In this document: positions 6,210-64,000 of the stretch, piece by piece
How the letters are laid out: the number at the start of each line of letters is the position of its first letter
How positions within the stretch are numbered: position 1 is the first letter of the stretch
Assembly: GCA_016191105.1 (NCBI GenBank)
Contig: JACPPH010000008.1
Location: forward strand, 2,667 to 66,666
DNA length: 64,000 nucleotides
Source: Candidatus Saccharimonadota bacterium
GTDB taxonomy: Bacteria > Patescibacteriota > Saccharimonadia > CAILAD01 > BJGX01
Direction: 5' to 3'
Notes under the pieces: generated by a model
Seen by the model: only the letters and a program-made list of their open reading frames with translations
Told to the model about the DNA's origin: nothing
Database searches by the model: none
Position numbers and translations under genes: made by a program

Positions 6210-7541
6210 CTATTTCTTTTGAACCTGCTCGGTCACTTTGGGCTCTACCAGGCGCAATGCAATAGCCGGGTCGTAGCCCAGCTGAACTGTGGCCATGGCT
6301 TCGCGCAAGGCTTCGTCTGAGGCCGCTGCATTGTAACCCTGGTACCAGTCGGTAGCGCTTACTACTTGCCTGGCAAACGGCCCCAGAATAGGGTCGTTGT
6401 ATTGACTCTTAGCTAAATCTGGGCGGCTCGAAACTCGGCCGCTGGCGTTCAAATATTTAGCTAGCTCATTGTAGGAGCTGGCAAAACCCAAAAAGTCCCA
6501 GGCAATATCGGGATTTTTGCTATTGCTCGAAACCAGCTCGGCCACGTATTGACTATAGTTGAGTTGATTTGAGCTATTAAGCTGGGGTAATGGGGCGGTT
6601 TTAAACTTTAAATCTGGGTTGGTGGCCGAAATCATGTTGGCCTGAAACGGGTAATCAATAATCATAGCAGTTTTACCGTTTGCAAAAGCCTGAACACTGC
6701 CGCCCAGAGCATCGCTCCACGAATAGCTGGTTTTGTTTGGATTAGAAAAGCTCGAGTAAAAGGCCAGGGCCTTGGCGCCAGCGTTGTAGTTATTGGAGTC
6801 GACTGAGCCAAATGTTGCTTGGGTAGGCGGCTGGTTGGTCATTTGAGCGCCATTTTGCATCATTAGTACTGAAAGCACATCGGCACTGTTATTAATGGCT
6901 GGGGTACCCAGCGCTACGCCCGATTTGTATAGAGCCGGCCCCTGTTTTTGACTTAATTTGGTGTTGGCATCGAGCAGTTCTTGCCAGCTACTCGGCGGGT
7001 CTTTTAAGCCAGCTTGTTCAAACAGGCTAGGGTTATAAAACAATCCCAAGGTTGGTAGGCTATAGGCTACGCCCCAAACCTTATTGCCCTGCACCAGTTC
7101 GCCGCTAATCAGCGAGGCAAAGTCAGACTTAAACTGTTTAGCTGTAAATACACTTTCTGGCGCCGGGCTAGCATTGGCCTGATAACGCACCAACCAATCA
7201 TTGCGAATTGCAAAAATGTCGGGCAAAGTTCCGGCTTTGGCAGCGGCTGTAAGTTTGGCATCATAGATAGCTGCATCCACCTCTTGAATCTGCACCGTAA
7301 CATTGGGGTGAAGTTTTTGATAGTCGGCCACCACGGCGTCGAAGGCATTCTGGCTATCATAAACTCGCCAGTAAGTAAGAGTAATTGGCGTAGTGGGGTA
7401 CTGAACCGAACCTTTGTAGTCACGATTGTTGGCCACCGGCGGCGGGGGCGACAAAAAAAAGTAATAGACCCACATAAAAACAATCAGACCAATAAATAGT
7501 AGGTAGTAACGCAGTCGTGGACGATGTAGGCGCTTCTTCAT
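6210..7541 (-). CDS. Extracellular solute-binding protein (SBP family 1-like), N-terminal membrane anchor
   Basis: About 440 aa with an N-terminal TM segment. Composition and length are typical of sugar-binding SBPs. No permease or ATPase gene adjacent. Confidence 0.55.
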   Translation of the reverse strand: MKKRLHRPRLRYYLLFIGLIVFMWVYYFFLSPPPPVANNRDYKGSVQYPTTPITLTYWRVYDSQNAFDAVVADYQKLHPNVTVQIQEVDAAIYDAKLTAAAKAGTLPDIFAIRNDWLVRYQANASPAPESVFTAKQFKSDFASLISGELVQGNKVWGVAYSLPTLGLFYNPSLFEQAGLKDPPSSWQELLDANTKLSQKQGPALYKSGVALGTPAINNSADVLSVLMMQNGAQMTNQPPTQATFGSVDSNNYNAGAKALAFYSSFSNPNKTSYSWSDALGGSVQAFANGKTAMIIDYPFQANMISATNPDLKFKTAPLPQLNSSNQLNYSQYVAELVSSNSKNPDIAWDFLGFASSYNELAKYLNASGRVSSRPDLAKSQYNDPILGPFARQVVSATDWYQGYNAAASDEALREAMATVQLGYDPAIALRLVEPKVTEQVQKK

Positions 7542-7775
7542 AAGTTAAGAGCTTGTCTCATAGTTTCATTTTAGCTTAAACCTATGCTTTTTGTCCTTTT
7601 TTGGCTGCAAATCAATTCTGTTTTGTTGGCTTAGAGGTGTCTAGGTTCTCCTTATAAAAACGATTTTCGTACAAAGATTTGCTTGTTTTACTCAAAATAA
7701 CAGATTATAAAGCCGGCTCTTGTTGGGTAGTAAATACTCAGCACTGCCCCCAATTACTCTTTTTTGGCCTTTGGT

Positions 7776-55198: not shown

Positions 55199-56299
55199 CT
55201 AGCGGCCGAGCCAGTTGTCGGGGGCGTAGGCCCAACCGAGGTAGGGATTGCTCAGATACCCCACCACCGGGTGTTGCCGTACAGGCAGCCGATCTCCATC
55301 GAATCCTTGAGTAGAGATTGCCTGGCCATTGCCTAACGAAACACCATTGTGACCGTAGCCGCCTGCGCCGCTATAGAACACAATCGCGCCAGGTGGGGGA
55401 TTGGTGTCGGTGCGGATTCGACCAGCATTTAGCTGGGCGTAGTAGTTGGCCATGGCGCTGGCATACTGTCGACCCGCTCCTCGTCCGCCCAGCGCAACTT
55501 CTACGAACATCTCGCAGATTCCCGACCAAGGTCGGGCGAACTCATTGCTCCAGGTTGGGTCTGGCGAATTCTTCTCGGCCGTGGCCCAGTCAACGGCACG
55601 TTGTTCACGGCCGCCGATAGTTGGCGCGCAGCTGGTTGCAGCTCGAACTCCACCTGCCGAATCCCACATGATCGAGCCACCCTGGAAGTCTTGACGAGTG
55701 CCCGCGCAGTAGCCGTACTCATCGCTGATTGGCCACTGTAGGTAACCACCGGCATCACCATTGGCGTAGTACCAGCTCAAGAAGCCGCTGCGCACCCCCT
55801 GAACCCGCTTGACTGCATCGCCACGGGCGATTACTGCATAGCCCATGGAACCGCCATTGAAGTCCTGAGCCCAGCCGGTGTTGTTGCCCCAGCGGTGAGA
55901 TTCCATGACCGGATAGCCAATCTCAGCTGAGCCTTTGGTTCTGGCGTAGGCCCATAATTCACCCACAACGTTGTAGGCGGTGCCACTGCAGCTTGGCTGT
56001 ACGATGGCATTTTCGCCATAGCCTGGGCTTGAAAAGCGCTGCATGCAAGCTGAGCCCCAGCGCTCGACAGCTGCCACGGGCGAGCCCATGACCGAGCCGC
56101 CCTTTACGTTGTAGGCATCTACAAAGGCTTGGGGATTGCTGGCACCTGTTCCGGCCACCAAGGGTTGGATTGTGGTGCTGCTAGGTGTTGGAGTGGGCGA
56201 AATGCCCACCGGCGTTGGCACAGCGCAAGCGGCTGCAATCATACCGAATGTCAATGTAAAGAGTGGCCCAAATAGGGCCACCCTCCGTGCGATACTCAT
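55199..56299 (-). CDS. Secreted LGFP-repeat protein with a C-terminal CHAP/NlpC-P60-like cysteine peptidase domain (high-GC, actinobacterial-type)
   Basis: Signal peptide. About four LGFP-like repeats (IGYP..E..WG...G..QDF.GG...). C-terminal Cys...His module (WSGICEMF...GGYGHNGVSLG). Local GC is far above the window average. Confidence 0.7.
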   Translation of the reverse strand: MSIARRVALFGPLFTLTFGMIAAACAVPTPVGISPTPTPSSTTIQPLVAGTGASNPQAFVDAYNVKGGSVMGSPVAAVERWGSACMQRFSSPGYGENAIVQPSCSGTAYNVVGELWAYARTKGSAEIGYPVMESHRWGNNTGWAQDFNGGSMGYAVIARGDAVKRVQGVRSGFLSWYYANGDAGGYLQWPISDEYGYCAGTRQDFQGGSIMWDSAGGVRAATSCAPTIGGREQRAVDWATAEKNSPDPTWSNEFARPWSGICEMFVEVALGGRGAGRQYASAMANYYAQLNAGRIRTDTNPPPGAIVFYSGAGGYGHNGVSLGNGQAISTQGFDGDRLPVRQHPVVGYLSNPYLGWAYAPDNWLGR

Positions 56300-59124: not shown

Positions 59125-60228
59125 TCAGGCGGCGACCTTCACCCGGCCACGAATGAGCTTCTTGATGGACTTGGCGGACTTGCGACGAGCCGCATCGTTG
59201 TGCACCACCACCTCCAGGGCATCGGTGAACGCCAGTAGCTGCAGCGAAAGATCGCTATAGCCTTCGTCGAAAGGTTCCCACGAGACAGCCTGGCGAAGTT
59301 CGTTGAACACCTGGGACGTTCTGAACTCCGGGAAGTCGCGGATCAGGGTAACCAACCCACTGGCCGCACACATCTGGCGCTCAGCCAGGTAGGCGCTAAT
59401 GACCAGGCCGATGTCTTCATCTGCCACAACTCCGTGCCTGCTGTGCTGCTTGGCAAACTGCCCGGCATTGCACAGTGGGTTGAAGATAGCGGCGCCTACA
59501 AGGCTGCGAACCGCCGCACTTGCATCTGACGTGCCCTCAGCTTCGAGCAGACGATCGAAGAGTTCGTCGACATGCACCTGAACAGCTCGTGCCAGCAGGA
59601 TCATGTCGGCGGCAGAACCGGCGGCCTTTTCGTTGAACTCCCATTGGGCGTCGAACCGCCGGATGGCCGCCGACCACCGCCATCGCATTGCGCTCGGGTT
59701 GTCGCGCGGTGGCTTGTGCCGATCGCGCAGGGCTGCGGAAGCACCGACCTTTGCCGATGCTTGCAGCAAGCGCTCACGAATAGCCGGCGCATAGCGTAGC
59801 GACATCCCGGCCAGTACGGCAAGCATGTCGGCGCGCTTGGCCACGTCGTCTTTGACGGCATACCAGTTAACGCCCAGGAGCTCGCTGTAACTACGCAAGA
59901 TCTCGGCGTCGCCGCTGAGCTCAGACGACCGCTTTCGAATACTTTCGTCGGCGTTTTCGGCACCACGCAGCCAGGCGTCGAAGGTGGTGGGGTGGAACCC
60001 GGCCTCTTTCCAGACCTCGTTGTGGCGCATATAGATGATCTGGCCGATCCGGTACTGATAATCCGGATTAGTGGCGGCCACGATCACATTCGCCTTGGTG
60101 TTGCGCCACCTGTCACGCGGTTCTTTCTGGTACTGCAGTGTGCGGTAGGTGAACTTGCCGTGTCCCAGCTTGCGCCAGGGGAGACTGTTGTCGGAGTGTT
60201 TACGCACACTCCACTTAAATAGAGCCAT
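59125..60228 (-). CDS. Hypothetical protein (high GC), adjacent to tRNA-Asn
   Basis: 367-aa ORF with no recognisable motifs. Clearly higher GC than its surroundings. Confidence 0.5.
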   Translation of the reverse strand: MALFKWSVRKHSDNSLPWRKLGHGKFTYRTLQYQKEPRDRWRNTKANVIVAATNPDYQYRIGQIIYMRHNEVWKEAGFHPTTFDAWLRGAENADESIRKRSSELSGDAEILRSYSELLGVNWYAVKDDVAKRADMLAVLAGMSLRYAPAIRERLLQASAKVGASAALRDRHKPPRDNPSAMRWRWSAAIRRFDAQWEFNEKAAGSAADMILLARAVQVHVDELFDRLLEAEGTSDASAAVRSLVGAAIFNPLCNAGQFAKQHSRHGVVADEDIGLVISAYLAERQMCAASGLVTLIRDFPEFRTSQVFNELRQAVSWEPFDEGYSDLSLQLLAFTDALEVVVHNDAARRKSAKSIKKLIRGRVKVAA

Positions 60229-60292: not shown

Positions 60293-60322
60293 TTGACTTC
60301 AAGGGCCCCATATCTGTATAAT
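60293..60322 (+). promoter_or_regulatory. Sigma-70-like promoter upstream of the tRNA-Asn locus
   Basis: TTGACT, an 18-nt spacer, then TATAAT. Confidence 0.6.
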
Positions 60323-60340
60323 CGGTGGGTATTACGCCAT

Positions 60341-60381
60341 TCCGGAGTAGCTCTTCGCTGTACAGCGAAGGTAGAGCAATT
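60341..60381 (+). other. tRNA-Asn-derived 5' pseudo-fragment containing a palindromic hairpin
   Basis: TCCGGAGTAGCTC, then TTCGCTGTACAGCGAAGG, then TAGAGCAATT. This matches the tRNA-Asn 5' end with the D-loop replaced by a CGCTGTACAGCG palindrome. Confidence 0.55.
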
Positions 60382-60398
60382 TCAGAATAAGCAGTTTA

Positions 60399-60473
60399 TC
60401 CGGAGTAGCTCAATGGTAGAGCAATTCGCTGTTAACGAAAAGGTTGCCGGTTCGAATCCGGCCTCCGGAGCCA
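60399..60473 (+). tRNA. tRNA-Asn (anticodon GTT)
   Basis: Acceptor TCCGGAG/CTCCGGA. D-arm GCTCAATGGTAGAGC. Anticodon loop CTGTTAA. T-arm GCCGGTTCGAATCCGGC. CCA is encoded. Confidence 0.85.
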
Positions 60474-60480
60474 TGAAAAG

Positions 60481-60508
60481 CGCCCGAGTTTTGCCTCGGG
60501 CTTTTTTC
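60481..60508 (+). terminator. Terminator after tRNA-Asn
   Basis: GCCCGAG-ttttgc-CTCGGGC followed by TTTTTTC. Confidence 0.7.
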
Positions 60509-60598
60509 ATGATGTTCTGAAGTGTCAGAATCGAACCGTAGGTTCGGCGTAGCGATAAAGCGCACAGAAGCTTGCTTCGAGCACTTTTGAGCGGAGAA

Positions 60599-60676
60599 GT
60601 CCGCTGTACAGCGGACGCTATCCGGCCTCCGGAGCCAAAGTACTTATGCTTAAAGAAGCCGTCAGGGCTTCTTTTT
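60599..60676 (+). repeat. Cassette-boundary repeat R1: palindrome, tRNA-Asn 3'-end copy, conserved core and hairpin
   Basis: GTCCGCTGTACAGCGGAC hairpin, then ATCCGGCCTCCGGAGCCA (identical to the tRNA-Asn 3' terminus), then AAGTACTTATGCTTAAAGAAGCC..GGCTTCTTTTT. Confidence 0.65.
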
Positions 60677-60691
60677 GATATGATGTAGGAC

Positions 60692-61891
60692 ATGAGTAAT
60701 GAAGATGTAAGTAAACCTAAAGATTCTGATTCTAGTTTTAATTCAGAATTAACCGATAGCCTTGCTAAAATTCGCGCGACAAATAATGAGATAGAAAAGC
60801 AAGGTAATGGATTTGAATTACAATCTCCTCAGGAATTTCGTGATGACTTTTCGGCTTTGGCACAATATGCCACCGATTTTGTTGGTATAGAAACAATGCA
60901 GTTTGAAGTTACCCAAGCCACTATACCCATTTTTAATGCCCTAAAAGCGGCAAAAGTTAATGGTGCAAAAACTCGTTTTGTTTATGACCGTGTAGCTCGA
61001 GAACATGTTCGCAGTGGCAATGACCAAGCTTGGAGTAAATATGGGAAAACAGTATACAAAGGTAATAAATCAGAGCTACAACAAGCTATTAATTCTCGAG
61101 AACAACAAATAGCCGAGTTAGAAGAACTTGGAATAACACACTCCTCTTTTAGAGACCGTGGTGAAAATGAAAGAGGTAGCCATAACCATATCAAGCTAGC
61201 GATTGTTGATGATGTGGCTTGGTTTGGGACAATGAATTTGCGACAAGTAGATTTTGAGATGAGCAACTTTATGATAAAAGTTACTAACCCTAAATTAGTT
61301 GAGGTGTTAAAAGAAATTTTCTTAAAAACTGAGCCGTCATCGGCAATTGCAGATGAAGTTTTTGTAGGTGAAGAGCATGGATTGTATAAAGATACACAAC
61401 TACTAGTTGATGGTGGAGAAAAAGGTGAATCAGTAATTTATGACAAGGCTTTAGAAATGGCTAAAAGCCTGGGACCAGAAGATGAGTTTATAATGATAAA
61501 CCAGTGGCCGCCAGCTAAGACGATGTTTGGTGAGATTGCAGATGTCCTACAAGAAAAGATAGAGGCTGGTAGTACCGGTTTGTTTTTACTAAGCCCAAAA
61601 GAATATTATCACCCTCTTTCTAAAAAGCTTGGGACAGCTTTTCAAGTATGGCTAAATCAAGAGTCAAAAAAATCTCCAAACTTTAACTTTAAAAATTTAG
61701 TACGACCGACTCATGCTAAGGCTTTTGTTATTAAACGAGCAGATGGTGATATAGAAGTATTGTTTGGGTCTCATAACTTTGCCGAACGGACTGTAAACAA
61801 CGGTACAAAAGAATTGGCAATGTGGAGCAAAGACCCTGAAATAGTTGGACAGATTATGGCTTTTCTTGAAAAAGTGCAGGCTGAGAAATAG
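60692..61891 (+). CDS. Phospholipase D-family (two HKD-like motifs) protein, possible nuclease/phosphodiesterase
   Basis: HIKLAIVDD matches HxKxxxxD, with a second degenerate HAKAFVIK...GSHNF motif. Confidence 0.6.
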   Translation: MSNEDVSKPKDSDSSFNSELTDSLAKIRATNNEIEKQGNGFELQSPQEFRDDFSALAQYATDFVGIETMQFEVTQATIPIFNALKAAKVNGAKTRFVYDRVAREHVRSGNDQAWSKYGKTVYKGNKSELQQAINSREQQIAELEELGITHSSFRDRGENERGSHNHIKLAIVDDVAWFGTMNLRQVDFEMSNFMIKVTNPKLVEVLKEIFLKTEPSSAIADEVFVGEEHGLYKDTQLLVDGGEKGESVIYDKALEMAKSLGPEDEFIMINQWPPAKTMFGEIADVLQEKIEAGSTGLFLLSPKEYYHPLSKKLGTAFQVWLNQESKKSPNFNFKNLVRPTHAKAFVIKRADGDIEVLFGSHNFAERTVNNGTKELAMWSKDPEIVGQIMAFLEKVQAEK

Positions 61892-61893
61892 TG

Positions 61894-61964
61894 GTTCTAA
61901 CTTCCTTCACCACCCGGAGCCAAAGTACTTATGTTTAAGACCCGATTGGGTCTTTTGTTATAAT
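61894..61964 (+). repeat. Cassette-boundary repeat R2
   Basis: GTTCTAACTTC...CGGAGCCAAAGTACTTATGTTTAAGACCCGATTGGGTCTTTTG...TATAAT. The TATAAT lies 7 nt before the next ATG. Confidence 0.65.
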
Positions 61965-61971
61965 TGACTGA

Positions 61972-62424
61972 ATGTTGACTAACACACCAGGCACTGATTG
62001 TTTTTATCGGGTTTCTATTAAGGCCCTGATTTTGAATGAAAAAAATCAGGTACTGCTTATGAAAGAGAAAGATAAGGGATGGGATTTGCCGGGCGGAGGC
62101 TTAGAATGGGACGAAAGCCCTACAGTTGCTTTGGGGCGTGAAATAGAAGAAGAGATAGGTTGCAAGAGTAAGATAAGCAGTCATCCATGGGTGGTGGTGC
62201 CATGGACCAATGTAGATACAGATTATCATTTGTTGAGTATTATTTATTTTGCAAAAATTAACCCAAACGGGGTAAAACCAAACGGTAAAACAACCGATGT
62301 TAAATTTTTTGATATCGATGAGTATGTAGAAATTTTGAATCTTGAAGAAGAAGAGATGTGGCAGACGAATATTGACTACATTTCTGCAGTGAAATCATTA
62401 CCGTCCGTAAGACAGGTTGATTAA
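61972..62424 (+). CDS. NUDIX hydrolase
   Basis: Nudix box GGGLEWDESPTVALGREIEEEIG. Confidence 0.8.
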   Translation: MLTNTPGTDCFYRVSIKALILNEKNQVLLMKEKDKGWDLPGGGLEWDESPTVALGREIEEEIGCKSKISSHPWVVVPWTNVDTDYHLLSIIYFAKINPNGVKPNGKTTDVKFFDIDEYVEILNLEEEEMWQTNIDYISAVKSLPSVRQVD

Positions 62425-62467
62425 ATAGGTATTCAATATTAGAAGTAAGCTTTGTTATACTTGAATT

Positions 62468-63517
62468 ATGCCAGAAGAGCTAAAAAATAACACCGAAGCA
62501 TCTAAGGGCCAACCAAGTCAGCTTGGTAAGGAGTTGAGTGACATTGTGGATGGAAACAATAAAGTTAGAGAGGCTGAGACACAAATCATTATCTCTGGTA
62601 CTCAAGCATATCAAACTGCCGAGAAAGGTAGACCCGAGCTAGAAGACCCAGCAACAGGTATCGTTGAACTGCATTATACTAACAGTTCAGGTTCAGAGAT
62701 AACACTAATTGGCACACATCATGTTAGTGATATGGCTGACCCGGAAGTACAATATCTTGGTGACAAGCTACAGTCTATTTCAGACAAGTCTTCAAAAGTA
62801 CTTATACTCGAAAGTCAGTACGGAGAAGAAGGAGGCATTCCAGATAATCCGGAAGATGCTTTTGGAGAATTTGCATACATGGCGGCTGTTGGGAAGCAAG
62901 CAGGGATTGAAGTTATTCCGGGCGAGCCAGACCCTCATGATACCGCTAAAAAAATACTTGTTGAACGCCCAGGCATTACAAGAGATGAGGTAGCCTTACA
63001 TTATGGCCTGAAAACATTGGTAGGTGTTTTTCGGGATTCTCCTACAGCCTCGCTTGATGCGGTTGCTCCGTACTTACACCATAGCGTTGGCGTAGCAGGC
63101 GACAAGTCAGAGGGAGGTTGGGTTGAAAAAAGCACGACACGAGATGAAGTTGTTAGGATGTCTGAACAGGAAAAGGCGATAATTGTAAAAGAGATGCCTG
63201 CAATCGTAGATAAGCTTAACGCCGAATTTGAAAAAATTAAGCCAGGTGAAAGGCTATTGCAACTTGAGCCAGATGGGAAGCTAACTTTATTATATGACCT
63301 GAACAAACCCCCTGTACTATGGGACCCTTCCCCTGAACAATCTGGAGGCCAGCCTAATGTGATAACTGAGATTTCACGAATGGATATGCTAATGCGAGAT
63401 AGACATACATTCGAGCTGACGGTTCACGCAATCAAACGGGGAAAAGAGCCAATTGTTGCGGTAGGAAGTTCTCATGTCAGCACATTAAAGCCTGCTTTTG
63501 ACGCTGCTTATAGTTAA
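62468..63517 (+). CDS. TraB/GumN-family protein
   Basis: ITLIGTHHVSD (GTxHV) and C-terminal VAVGSSHVS motifs typical of the TraB/PrgY/GumN family. Confidence 0.55.
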   Translation: MPEELKNNTEASKGQPSQLGKELSDIVDGNNKVREAETQIIISGTQAYQTAEKGRPELEDPATGIVELHYTNSSGSEITLIGTHHVSDMADPEVQYLGDKLQSISDKSSKVLILESQYGEEGGIPDNPEDAFGEFAYMAAVGKQAGIEVIPGEPDPHDTAKKILVERPGITRDEVALHYGLKTLVGVFRDSPTASLDAVAPYLHHSVGVAGDKSEGGWVEKSTTRDEVVRMSEQEKAIIVKEMPAIVDKLNAEFEKIKPGERLLQLEPDGKLTLLYDLNKPPVLWDPSPEQSGGQPNVITEISRMDMLMRDRHTFELTVHAIKRGKEPIVAVGSSHVSTLKPAFDAAYS

Positions 63518-63537
63518 GTAAGCTCAGCGAAAAGCTA

Positions 63538-63600
63538 GTTCTAACTTCAGTTACTACACGGAGCCAAAGTACTTATGCTTAAGACCCGAGGGTTTATAAT
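63538..63600 (+). repeat. Cassette-boundary repeat R3
   Basis: GTTCTAACTTC...CGGAGCCAAAGTACTTATGCTTAAGACCCGAGGGTTTATAAT, homologous to R2 over about 60 nt. Confidence 0.65.
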
Positions 63601-63804
63601 GTGAACATGAAAGCTATCGAGCACAAAGTAAAACATCAATATTAGCCTACGGATAATAGTTGTAGTCCAACAGCCTTAAGTATTCCTTTGAGCTATTACG
63701 GCAAAACATTTTCAGTTTGCTTAGCCTTCTCAAAAGACTTATTGAATTGTTTTTTATCTCCCCCCGTAATATTTATCGTTATCTTATAATGATATACTAA
63801 ATTT

Positions 63805-63990
63805 ATGGATACTAAGACCAAAAACGAGATTTTGGAAAAGGCGAAAGCTTGGATGCGAGATGAGCTTGCTGAAGCTCATAAACAAAACACACTAAAACTA
63901 AAAAATGTAGATGAGTTTAATATCAATCCCTTTTTATGGTCATACCTAGCAAATTATTTAGAGGGCAATCAAAACTACAAAAGTTTAGCT
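63805..63990 (+). CDS. Hypothetical protein, 3' end outside window
   Basis: ATG preceded by TATAAT at 63786-63791. Translation MDTKTKNEILEKAKAWMRDELAEAHK... is open to the window end. Confidence 0.45.
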
Positions 63991-64000
63991 AAAGCGCTTA

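Follow-up and report, generated by a model that had tools for sequence, protein, structure and literature searches.

A tandem gene array behind tRNA-Asn in a Candidatus Saccharimonadota bacterium and its candidate attachment sites for large serine recombinases

Near the right-hand end of a 64,000-nucleotide stretch of DNA from a Candidatus Saccharimonadota bacterium (GenBank assembly GCA_016191105.1, contig JACPPH010000008.1; the whole stretch is referred to below as the window), an intact tRNA-Asn gene, recognised by ARAGORN and Rfam, is followed on the same strand by an array of small gene units separated by copies of a direct repeat, R1 to R3 (Table 1). The repeat core, CGGAGCCAAAGTACTTATGYTTAAGA, is present at 60630, 61915 and 63559 and nowhere else in the 64 kb even when three mismatches are allowed, and shuffled sequences contained no copy. 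An earlier reading of the sequence alone (the original prediction) had reported the tRNA and this threefold repeat, together with the exact 18-nt tRNA-Asn 3' terminus in R1 (60620-60637, identical to 60456-60473), the GTTCTAACTTC block shared by R2 and R3 upstream of the core, and the hairpin and T-run in which the repeats end; all of these were recovered, and every repeat also has a -10 box at a distance of 6-7 nt from an ATG. The PLD-family protein (PF13091, two HKD motifs) and the NUDIX hydrolase (PF00293) had likewise been named correctly. The claim that three genes are each followed by a repeat did not hold: R1 precedes the PLD gene, R2 follows it (the PLD stop codon abutting GTTCTAACTTC), no repeat follows the NUDIX gene, and R3 follows the gene for a 349-aa protein, which forms one unit with the NUDIX gene between R2 and R3 (43-nt ordinary spacer, no site between them). 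The array units hold one gene (PLD), two genes (NUDIX and the 349-aa protein) and, in the third unit past R3, at least four. The TraB/GumN-like identity proposed for the 349-aa protein was not sustained, the match to PF01963 being sub-threshold (E 0.094, 13 bits, cut-off 26.8); searches of Pfam, NCBIfam and PDB gave no assignment, and the single-sequence AlphaFold model (pLDDT 40) was too poor for a structure search.

The window DNA is also present on a 91-kb public contig, on which the locus designated L001 extends 9.5 kb past the window end. In L001, where gene identities were taken from Pfam, R3 is followed by a 12-codon open reading frame (ORF), an EcoO109I-type restriction gene, a C5 methylase, a 136-aa ORF, a decayed site, DapF and a fourth site, R4, behind which TGAAAAGCCCCGAG...TTTTTTCATGATGT is the same terminator flank as that behind the intact tRNA; the conserved convergent gene OmdA comes next. 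The extension past 64 kb that had been recommended at the outset thus supplied a fourth site, but no recombinase in the additional 9.5 kb, and no copy of the repeat other than R4. The possibility that the repeat is a genome-wide dispersed element, unrelated to the tRNA, is contradicted by this distribution and by the position of the repeat behind tRNA-Asn in other genomes. The type II restriction-modification (R-M) pair lies across the window end in the third unit (window 63805-64000; L001 11338-13308); its endonuclease is of the EcoO109I family, and its C5 cytosine methylase carries a MerR-type helix-turn-helix (HTH) at the N terminus. The decayed site before DapF (L001 13742-13812, approximately 66209-66279 in window numbering) retains GTTTTAACTTTC, resembling the block upstream of the core in R2 and R3, and has lost the core; what remains is half a hairpin, a T-run and TGATATAAT. 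DapF, usually a housekeeping protein, is encoded by the last unit of the array.

For comparison of the junctions, the left arms were denoted T (tRNA end), T' (its 18-nt copy) and G (GTTCTAACTTC plus 10 nt), and the right flanks A (terminator flank) and B (AAGTACTTATGYTTAAGA). The junctions then follow in the order T/A (intact tRNA), T'/B (R1), G/B (R2), G/B (R3), the decayed site and G/A (R4). Alignment of all sites revealed that two types of left arm (T and G) are combined with two types of right flank (A and B), the switch falling exactly at the 8-nt CGGAGCCA. Three other loci (L004, L014 and L033) showed this reassortment too, there with a third type of flank (C). The series follows the logic of attB, attL, attP and attR sites and is what is expected from recombination at the core between an attB (T/A) and an attP-type site (G/B). 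Because CGGAGCCA is itself the terminus of the tRNA, the tRNA end would be regenerated at each insertion.

Between the intact tRNA and R1, flank A, a spacer and T' make up a 164-nt ORF-less module (60474-60637), which recurs at a length of 164-175 nt in L014/L057, L034, L038/L058, L050/L053, L116, L122 and L033. The module was seen in many Saccharibacteria, mostly directly after the intact tRNA, and contains a terminator, two to three hairpins with compensatory changes, the conserved blocks GGTTCG, CGAGCA and GAGCGGAGAAG, and the 18-nt tRNA 3' copy; Rfam holds no family for it, and the whole window matched Rfam tRNAs only. Folding of 60596-60690 gave a z score of -4.8. Flank B includes the -35 element of the cassette promoter, which may explain its conservation. 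The array has a lower G+C content (39.1%) than the window (45.8%) or the right flank (43.9%).

Table 1. Features of the tRNA-Asn array in the window and of related sites and modules in other loci (window numbering unless another locus is named).
Feature	Position	Strand	Details
Promoter-like TTGACT-18-TATAAT, predicted to drive the tRNA-Asn transcript	60293-60322	+	11/12 consensus matches
Pseudo 5' part of tRNA-Asn	60341-60380	+	Sequence reading; TCCGGAGTAGCTC, 16-nt palindrome TTCGCTGTACAGCGAA (60354-60369), GGTAGAGCAATT
tRNA-Asn(GTT), intact	60399-60473	+	ARAGORN; Rfam 72.5 bits
Left arm T (attB-type), the tRNA-Asn T-loop-to-CCA segment	core CGGAGCCA at 60466-60473	+	
Flank A and conserved ORF-less spacer	60474-60619	+	Terminator hairpin 60482-60501; further hairpins; palindrome TCCGCTGTACAGCGGA (60601-60616)
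R1, junction T'/B	60620-60655	+	18-nt tRNA 3' copy 60620-60637 (core 60630-60637), then flank B AAGTACTTATGCTTAAAG
Hairpin GAAGCC..GGCTTC, T-run and -10 box	60656-60691	+	TATGAT (60679-60684), 7 nt to PLD ATG
Cassette 1, 399-aa PLD-family protein	60692-61891	+	Two HKD motifs; PF13091, E 2.7e-12
R2, junction G/B	61894-61940	+	G-arm GTTCTAACTTC 61894-61904, 10 variable nt, core CGGAGCCA 61915-61922, flank B
Promoter-like TTAAGA-18-TATAAT	61935-61971	+	10/12, TG-extended; hairpin AAGACCC..GGGTCTT in spacer; 7 nt from -10 to NUDIX ATG
Cassette 2, NUDIX hydrolase and 349-aa protein	61972-63517	+	NUDIX 61972-62424 (PF00293, E 5.7e-16); 349-aa protein 62468-63517
R3, junction G/B	63538-63584	+	G-arm 63538-63548, 10 variable nt, core 63559-63566, flank B
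Start of cassette 3	63585-64000	+	-10 box TATAAT 63595-63600; 12-codon ORF 63607-63645; EcoO109I-type restriction gene from 63805
R4, fourth site, junction G/A	~67057-67085; L001 14590-14618	+	GTTCTAACTTCCTCCACCATCCGGAGCCA; array end, 3 kb past window
Copies of the 164-175-nt module (oriented coordinates)	L014 3287-3451; L034 3952-4124; L038 48-220; L050 492-663; L116 1708-1883; L122 2438-2609		
Palindrome-bearing sites (oriented coordinates)	L014 7499-7545; L050 5485-5535, 6020-6070; L104 9329-9375		

The G-arm and core together form a 29-nt G-site (GTTCTAACTTC, a 10-nt gap and CGGAGCCA). An exact-pattern scan of public genomes, one per species, returned 39 loci, 35 of them with the 10-nt gap and nearly all of these from Patescibacteria, the candidate phyla radiation (CPR): Saccharibacteria, Peribacteria, WWE3, Curtissbacteria, Berkelbacteria, Paceibacteria and a few other candidate phyla. 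The four matches with other gap lengths came from unrelated non-CPR phyla and were set aside as chance. A metagenome scan added 82 further loci, for a total of about 115 public loci, those with a name again being almost exclusively CPR. Viral contigs contained no match to the pattern and hence no sign of a phage origin. When the loci were oriented on the site, tRNA-Asn accounted for 23 of the 29 tRNAs found, and all 23 lay upstream of the G-site on the same strand; further loci possess intron-bearing or truncated tRNA-Asn genes missed by ARAGORN. The site family and its linkage to tRNA-Asn are well supported. Several sites per locus were detected once two mismatches were allowed, giving 44 inter-site intervals with a median of 825 nt; exactly one ORF was present in 29 of 40 small intervals, and 51 ORFs ran on the tRNA strand versus 6 on the other. 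The cassette stop codon usually overlaps TAGTTCTAAC. Cargo in these loci included GNAT acetyltransferases, P-loop kinases, NUDIX, PLD, HAD and SDR proteins, an APH-like protein and R-M proteins. In several CPR genomes (L015 6262-6551, L020, L113, L123 and L124) the anticodon loop of tRNA-Asn carries an insertion of ~240 nt, whose conserved blocks suggest a group I-like intron, and in L015 an HNH ORF reaches up to the tRNA.

An all-against-all comparison of the ORFs in the loci revealed no recurrent recombinase, while a Pfam census identified two large serine recombinases (LSRs), which were then used as probes. In L048, L061, L087 and L111, an LSR with Resolvase, Recombinase and Zn_ribbon_recom domains occupies the position immediately 3' of tRNA-Asn and is encoded on the other strand; these are exactly the loci whose first G-site stands 8-12 kb from the tRNA. 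In L017, L107 and L100 an LSR comes directly after a G-site. This placement indicates that the G-arm and core are the distal end (P half) of LSR elements, which also stack in tandem. The L048 enzyme had 2,226 homologues at E ≤ 1e-20, with source names all from CPR lineages, and all five homologues sampled independently (L123-L127, 43-71% identity) abut tRNA-Asn (two of these tRNAs being intron-bearing), two of the five having a G-like site, at 8.6 kb and at 11.6 kb. The absence of an integrase from the window, stated in the original prediction, was borne out, and the enzyme associated with the sites elsewhere is an LSR. The LSR ORFs of L048, L061, L087, L111 and L107 run on without a stop through the att core and into the tRNA or G-arm, which lie on the opposite strand, and end in ...WLRGWDSNPRP or ...WLRWMDEVRT, so that the tail of the enzyme would differ between the integrated and the excised state. 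The 9-kb LSR element at tRNA-Asn in L087 also contains, beside an HTH gene, an ORF with a YVDD motif (6297-7620, oriented), which, read by eye, could encode a reverse transcriptase of retron or Abi type. A more distant LSR in L103 (5319-6934, oriented) abuts tRNA-Gly, with a G-site 6.3 kb downstream, and related recombinases may accordingly use other tRNAs.

The content of the array varies between conserved flanks. The glycoside hydrolase of the left flank was 54-60% identical at the amino acid level in six other loci and OmdA of the right flank 71-74% identical in four, whereas of the seven array proteins only one, the PLD protein, had a counterpart in flank-sharing relatives (40.6% identity, in L050/L053, where it sits elsewhere in the tRNA-Asn array); the three genes named in the original prediction are thus not conserved among relatives. 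L014 and L104 share 88.7% identity over 2.85 kb up to the last tRNA base and 97.8% in the stretch that begins with the last G-site, with different genes between. A cassette with a 172-aa ORF was 96-99% identical among L014, L104 and L050, where its upstream neighbour is different in each and the tRNA-side flanks are only 79-89% identical, a pattern that suggests that single units were exchanged recently.

Within the left arms, the GTTCGAA of the tRNA starts at a distance of 24 nt from the CCA end, and the GTTCTAA of the G-arm at 29 nt. In serine integrases, the motif bound by the zinc-ribbon domain occupies bp 16-24 of the half-site in attP and lies 5 bp nearer the centre (bp 11-19) in attB (Rutherford et al., PMC3783163). 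The offset between the G-arm and tRNA motifs would match this published shift, as judged for the left half only, and the numbering of PMC3783163, applied to both arms, would place the crossover on the GA within CGG/AGCCA, the only block shared by all junctions. Other readings of the arms were discarded. Inverted repeats noticed by eye as a sign of a dimeric enzyme did not exceed shuffled sequences in dyad symmetry; counting back from CCA gave no T-stem, against the G-arm as a real tRNA T-arm; and a mini-helix with a covarying stem was rejected since the stem of R2 and R3 is not kept in R4.

Taken together, we consider it probable that the locus is an accretion array, in which small units were inserted serially at the 3' end of tRNA-Asn by site-specific recombination at LSR-family sites. 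Serial insertion at a tRNA attB that regenerates the att core, as originally proposed, is favoured by the arm reassortment, the tRNA-Asn linkage, the variable cassettes and the existence of a tRNA-Asn-specific recombinase family. Each unit would begin with a right-arm flank doubling as terminator and promoter, continue with one or a few co-oriented genes, and end in the 21-nt left arm (GTTCTAACTTC plus 10 nt) followed by the 8-nt core. The sites would constitute the attachment-site family of an LSR clade targeting tRNA-Asn in CPR bacteria, the G-arm and core acting as the P half of attP and the T-loop-to-CCA segment of the tRNA as the B half of attB. The cargo (PLD protein, NUDIX hydrolase, R-M system and DapF) would represent accessory DNA of lower G+C. 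The units in the window, which are without a recombinase, would either be mobilised in trans by an LSR encoded elsewhere or persist as fixed relics of earlier insertions; that the array was made by an LSR, and that its cassettes are mobile at present, is something we infer, since no recombinase lies in the window or the 9.5 kb beyond.

Several observations weigh against serial insertion by an LSR. A phmmer search detected no LSR in the 64 kb of the window, the further 9.5 kb of L001 or any of the 20 loci with the Saccharibacteria-type flank B. Canonical serine integrases recombine attP with attB only and do not accept hybrid sites, so that internal G/B and T'/B junctions beside T/A require that units entered hybrid sites or landed beside an existing element, that circles of several units were inserted, or that the enzyme is less strict. 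No motif shifted by 5 bp is common to flanks A and B on the right, and the dyad symmetry of the sites is not above that of shuffles. The conservation of GTTCTAACTTC is overstated, because the search demanded the exact motif. The homology of the 172-aa cassette begins at the G-arm in one comparison and ~45 nt past the core in another, inside the site modules. Finally, in some relatives' sites a 16-nt perfect palindrome, TTCGC(A/T)GGCCAGCGAA, lies between the G-arm and a variant core, AAGAGCCA, and breaks the spacing (Table 1); the inserted palindromes are similar to those flanking the window tRNA.

The main rival explanation is that the repeats are fossil scars of earlier insertions and now serve as ~50-90-bp homology anchors, the cassettes being swapped by natural transformation and homologous recombination in the manner of 'minimal mobile elements', with no site-specific enzyme acting now. 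Such relics would account for the lack of a recombinase near any B-type array, for homology boundaries of the 172-aa cassette that fall inside conserved modules and not at the core, and for the persistence of a decayed, core-less site before DapF. We nevertheless regard this explanation as unlikely, because homologous recombination leaves unexplained the exact reassortment of arms at an 8-nt core in many genomes, the strict organisation into units of one ORF and one orientation, and the identity of the left arm with the P half-site of LSR elements. A purely RNA-level role, in which a tRNA-like 3' tag with terminator and promoter punctuates or processes transcripts and was spread by duplication of the tRNA-Asn trailer, without being a mark of mobile DNA, receives almost no credence from us: every copy does end in ...GGAGCCA followed by a terminator-like hairpin and a promoter, but there is no 5' acceptor strand for pairing, no tRNA-like fold and no Rfam match, the content of the arrays varies between conserved flanks, and the same arm is the distal end of 8-12-kb LSR elements. 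An origin by reverse transcription and template switching, with the 18-nt tRNA end as primer site, was also rejected, the promoter lying inside the unit, downstream of the junction.

The resemblance to integrons, raised in the original prediction, holds for the layout only. As in integrons, mostly single, co-oriented accessory ORFs have a recombination site directly after each stop codon, and comparable cargo is carried (GNAT, NUDIX, kinases, an APH-like protein and R-M genes). In contrast to integrons, no IntI or other tyrosine recombinase was found: a XerD probe, which as a single sequence could miss divergent integrases, gave no match at E ≤ 10 among 483,460 ORF residues of the window and L001-L122, and Phage_integrase was not among the recurrent Pfam families of the loci. 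Nor do the sites fold as attC hairpins, single-strand DNA folds showing no site-spanning hairpin (R2 z -1.9, R3 z +1.5). Instead of sharing a common Pc promoter, every unit brings a -35/-10 pair or a -10 box of its own, 6-7 nt ahead of the ATG; a tRNA 3' end serves as anchor, and the enzyme linked to the sites belongs to the serine recombinases. The array is not an integron, three of the four integron features tested being absent. An integron-type system run by an unrecognised tyrosine recombinase, with the tRNA end as attI and the 367-aa gene at 59125-60228 as a possible source of the enzyme, would fit the layout and the occurrence of this fast-evolving gene family, syntenic and divergent, beside tRNA-Asn in several Saccharibacteria. 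The 367-aa protein, however, has no match in Pfam, NCBIfam or PADLOC and its family is absent outside one lineage, and, with the negative XerD search and the properties of the sites and promoters given above, this explanation is very improbable.

Among known systems, by analogy, the array would work most like composite islands of the staphylococcal cassette chromosome (SCC), and would represent serine-recombinase island accretion of the SCC type in a new form. SCC and SCCmec elements use the large serine recombinases CcrAB or CcrC and an attB in the 3' end of rlmH/orfX. As in SCC, serial LSR insertion at the 3' end of a conserved gene would re-create that end as a direct repeat at every junction, and tandem arrays include recombinase-less pseudo-elements carrying accessory genes. 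The window array has such tandem units, some of them without a recombinase, and direct repeats re-creating the 3' end of the target gene, which here is tRNA-Asn, not rlmH. It differs in its tRNA target, its CPR hosts, its small units (median ~0.8 kb, usually one gene) with their own terminator-promoter module, and the absence of the recombinase from most arrays. With elements of the phiC31, Bxb1 and A118/LI integrases the LSRs share the Resolvase, Recombinase and zinc-ribbon architecture and an integrase gene beside the att site, and the sites share the four junction types, formed in the window array by arms that exchange at one short core; judged from the left half, the distal motif would also lie 5 bp further from the centre in attP than it does in attB (PMC3783163). 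Those elements, in contrast, occur singly at a site and recombination of hybrid sites is barred without a directionality factor, so that they build no arrays with internal attP-like sites; moreover, the LSR ORF described here reads across the att core into the tRNA. Tyrosine-integrase islands linked to tRNA genes (accretion of cis-mobilisable elements, CIME, and integrative and conjugative elements, ICE) show the same insertion at and duplication of a tRNA 3' end, tandem accretion and non-autonomous elements needing an integrase in trans, but the enzyme class is another, and here the identity block is only 8 nt, the units are of single-gene size, and several candidate phyla share the conserved site. 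Full-text literature searches returned no description of the site or the array.

Upstream of the array, a fragment comprising the acceptor and D-stem of tRNA-Asn, a palindrome and GGTAGAGCAATT lies between the promoter and the intact gene. This layout is common to L014/L057/L104 and L050/L053, and TTGACTTCAAG...TATAAT is also found upstream of tRNA-Asn in L014 and L104. In L125 (native ~12110-11790) a GIY-YIG endonuclease ORF lies between the same kind of pseudo-tRNA fragment and the tRNA, so that a homing-endonuclease cassette may have left the window copy as its footprint. Two genes of ~60% G+C stand out in the window. That at 55199-56299 encodes an LGFP/NlpC-P60-like protein, while that at 59125-60228, adjoining the tRNA, encodes the 367-aa orphan, a weak member of a syntenic Saccharibacteria family with 46-48% G+C elsewhere; it was dismissed as a recombinase, having no domain match and belonging to a lineage-restricted syntenic family.

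CPR bacteria (Patescibacteria) have very small genomes, in which gene gain and loss are little understood. If tRNA-Asn is a conserved platform for insertion, defined by its sequence, it would show where these bacteria keep their accessory and defence genes. The 29-nt site lends itself to direct searches and would give a simple marker of strain variation in metagenomes. The platform also points to a large clade of serine integrases with a known, short and natural target, of practical interest as genome-engineering tools. As a tentative extension, which we consider possible but not the likelier case, the arrays could be a CPR counterpart of the integron built on serine recombinases: a gene-capture platform at tRNA-Asn in which single-gene cassettes, each with its own promoter and an attP-like GTTCTAACTTC-N10-CGGAGCCA site and flank, would be inserted, excised and shuffled in trans by tRNA-Asn-specific LSRs, and these tiny genomes would have a hot spot reserved for genes of accessory and defence function. 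Should recombinase-less cassettes indeed be moved by an enzyme acting in trans, they would make up the first integron-like cassette system based on a serine and not a tyrosine recombinase.

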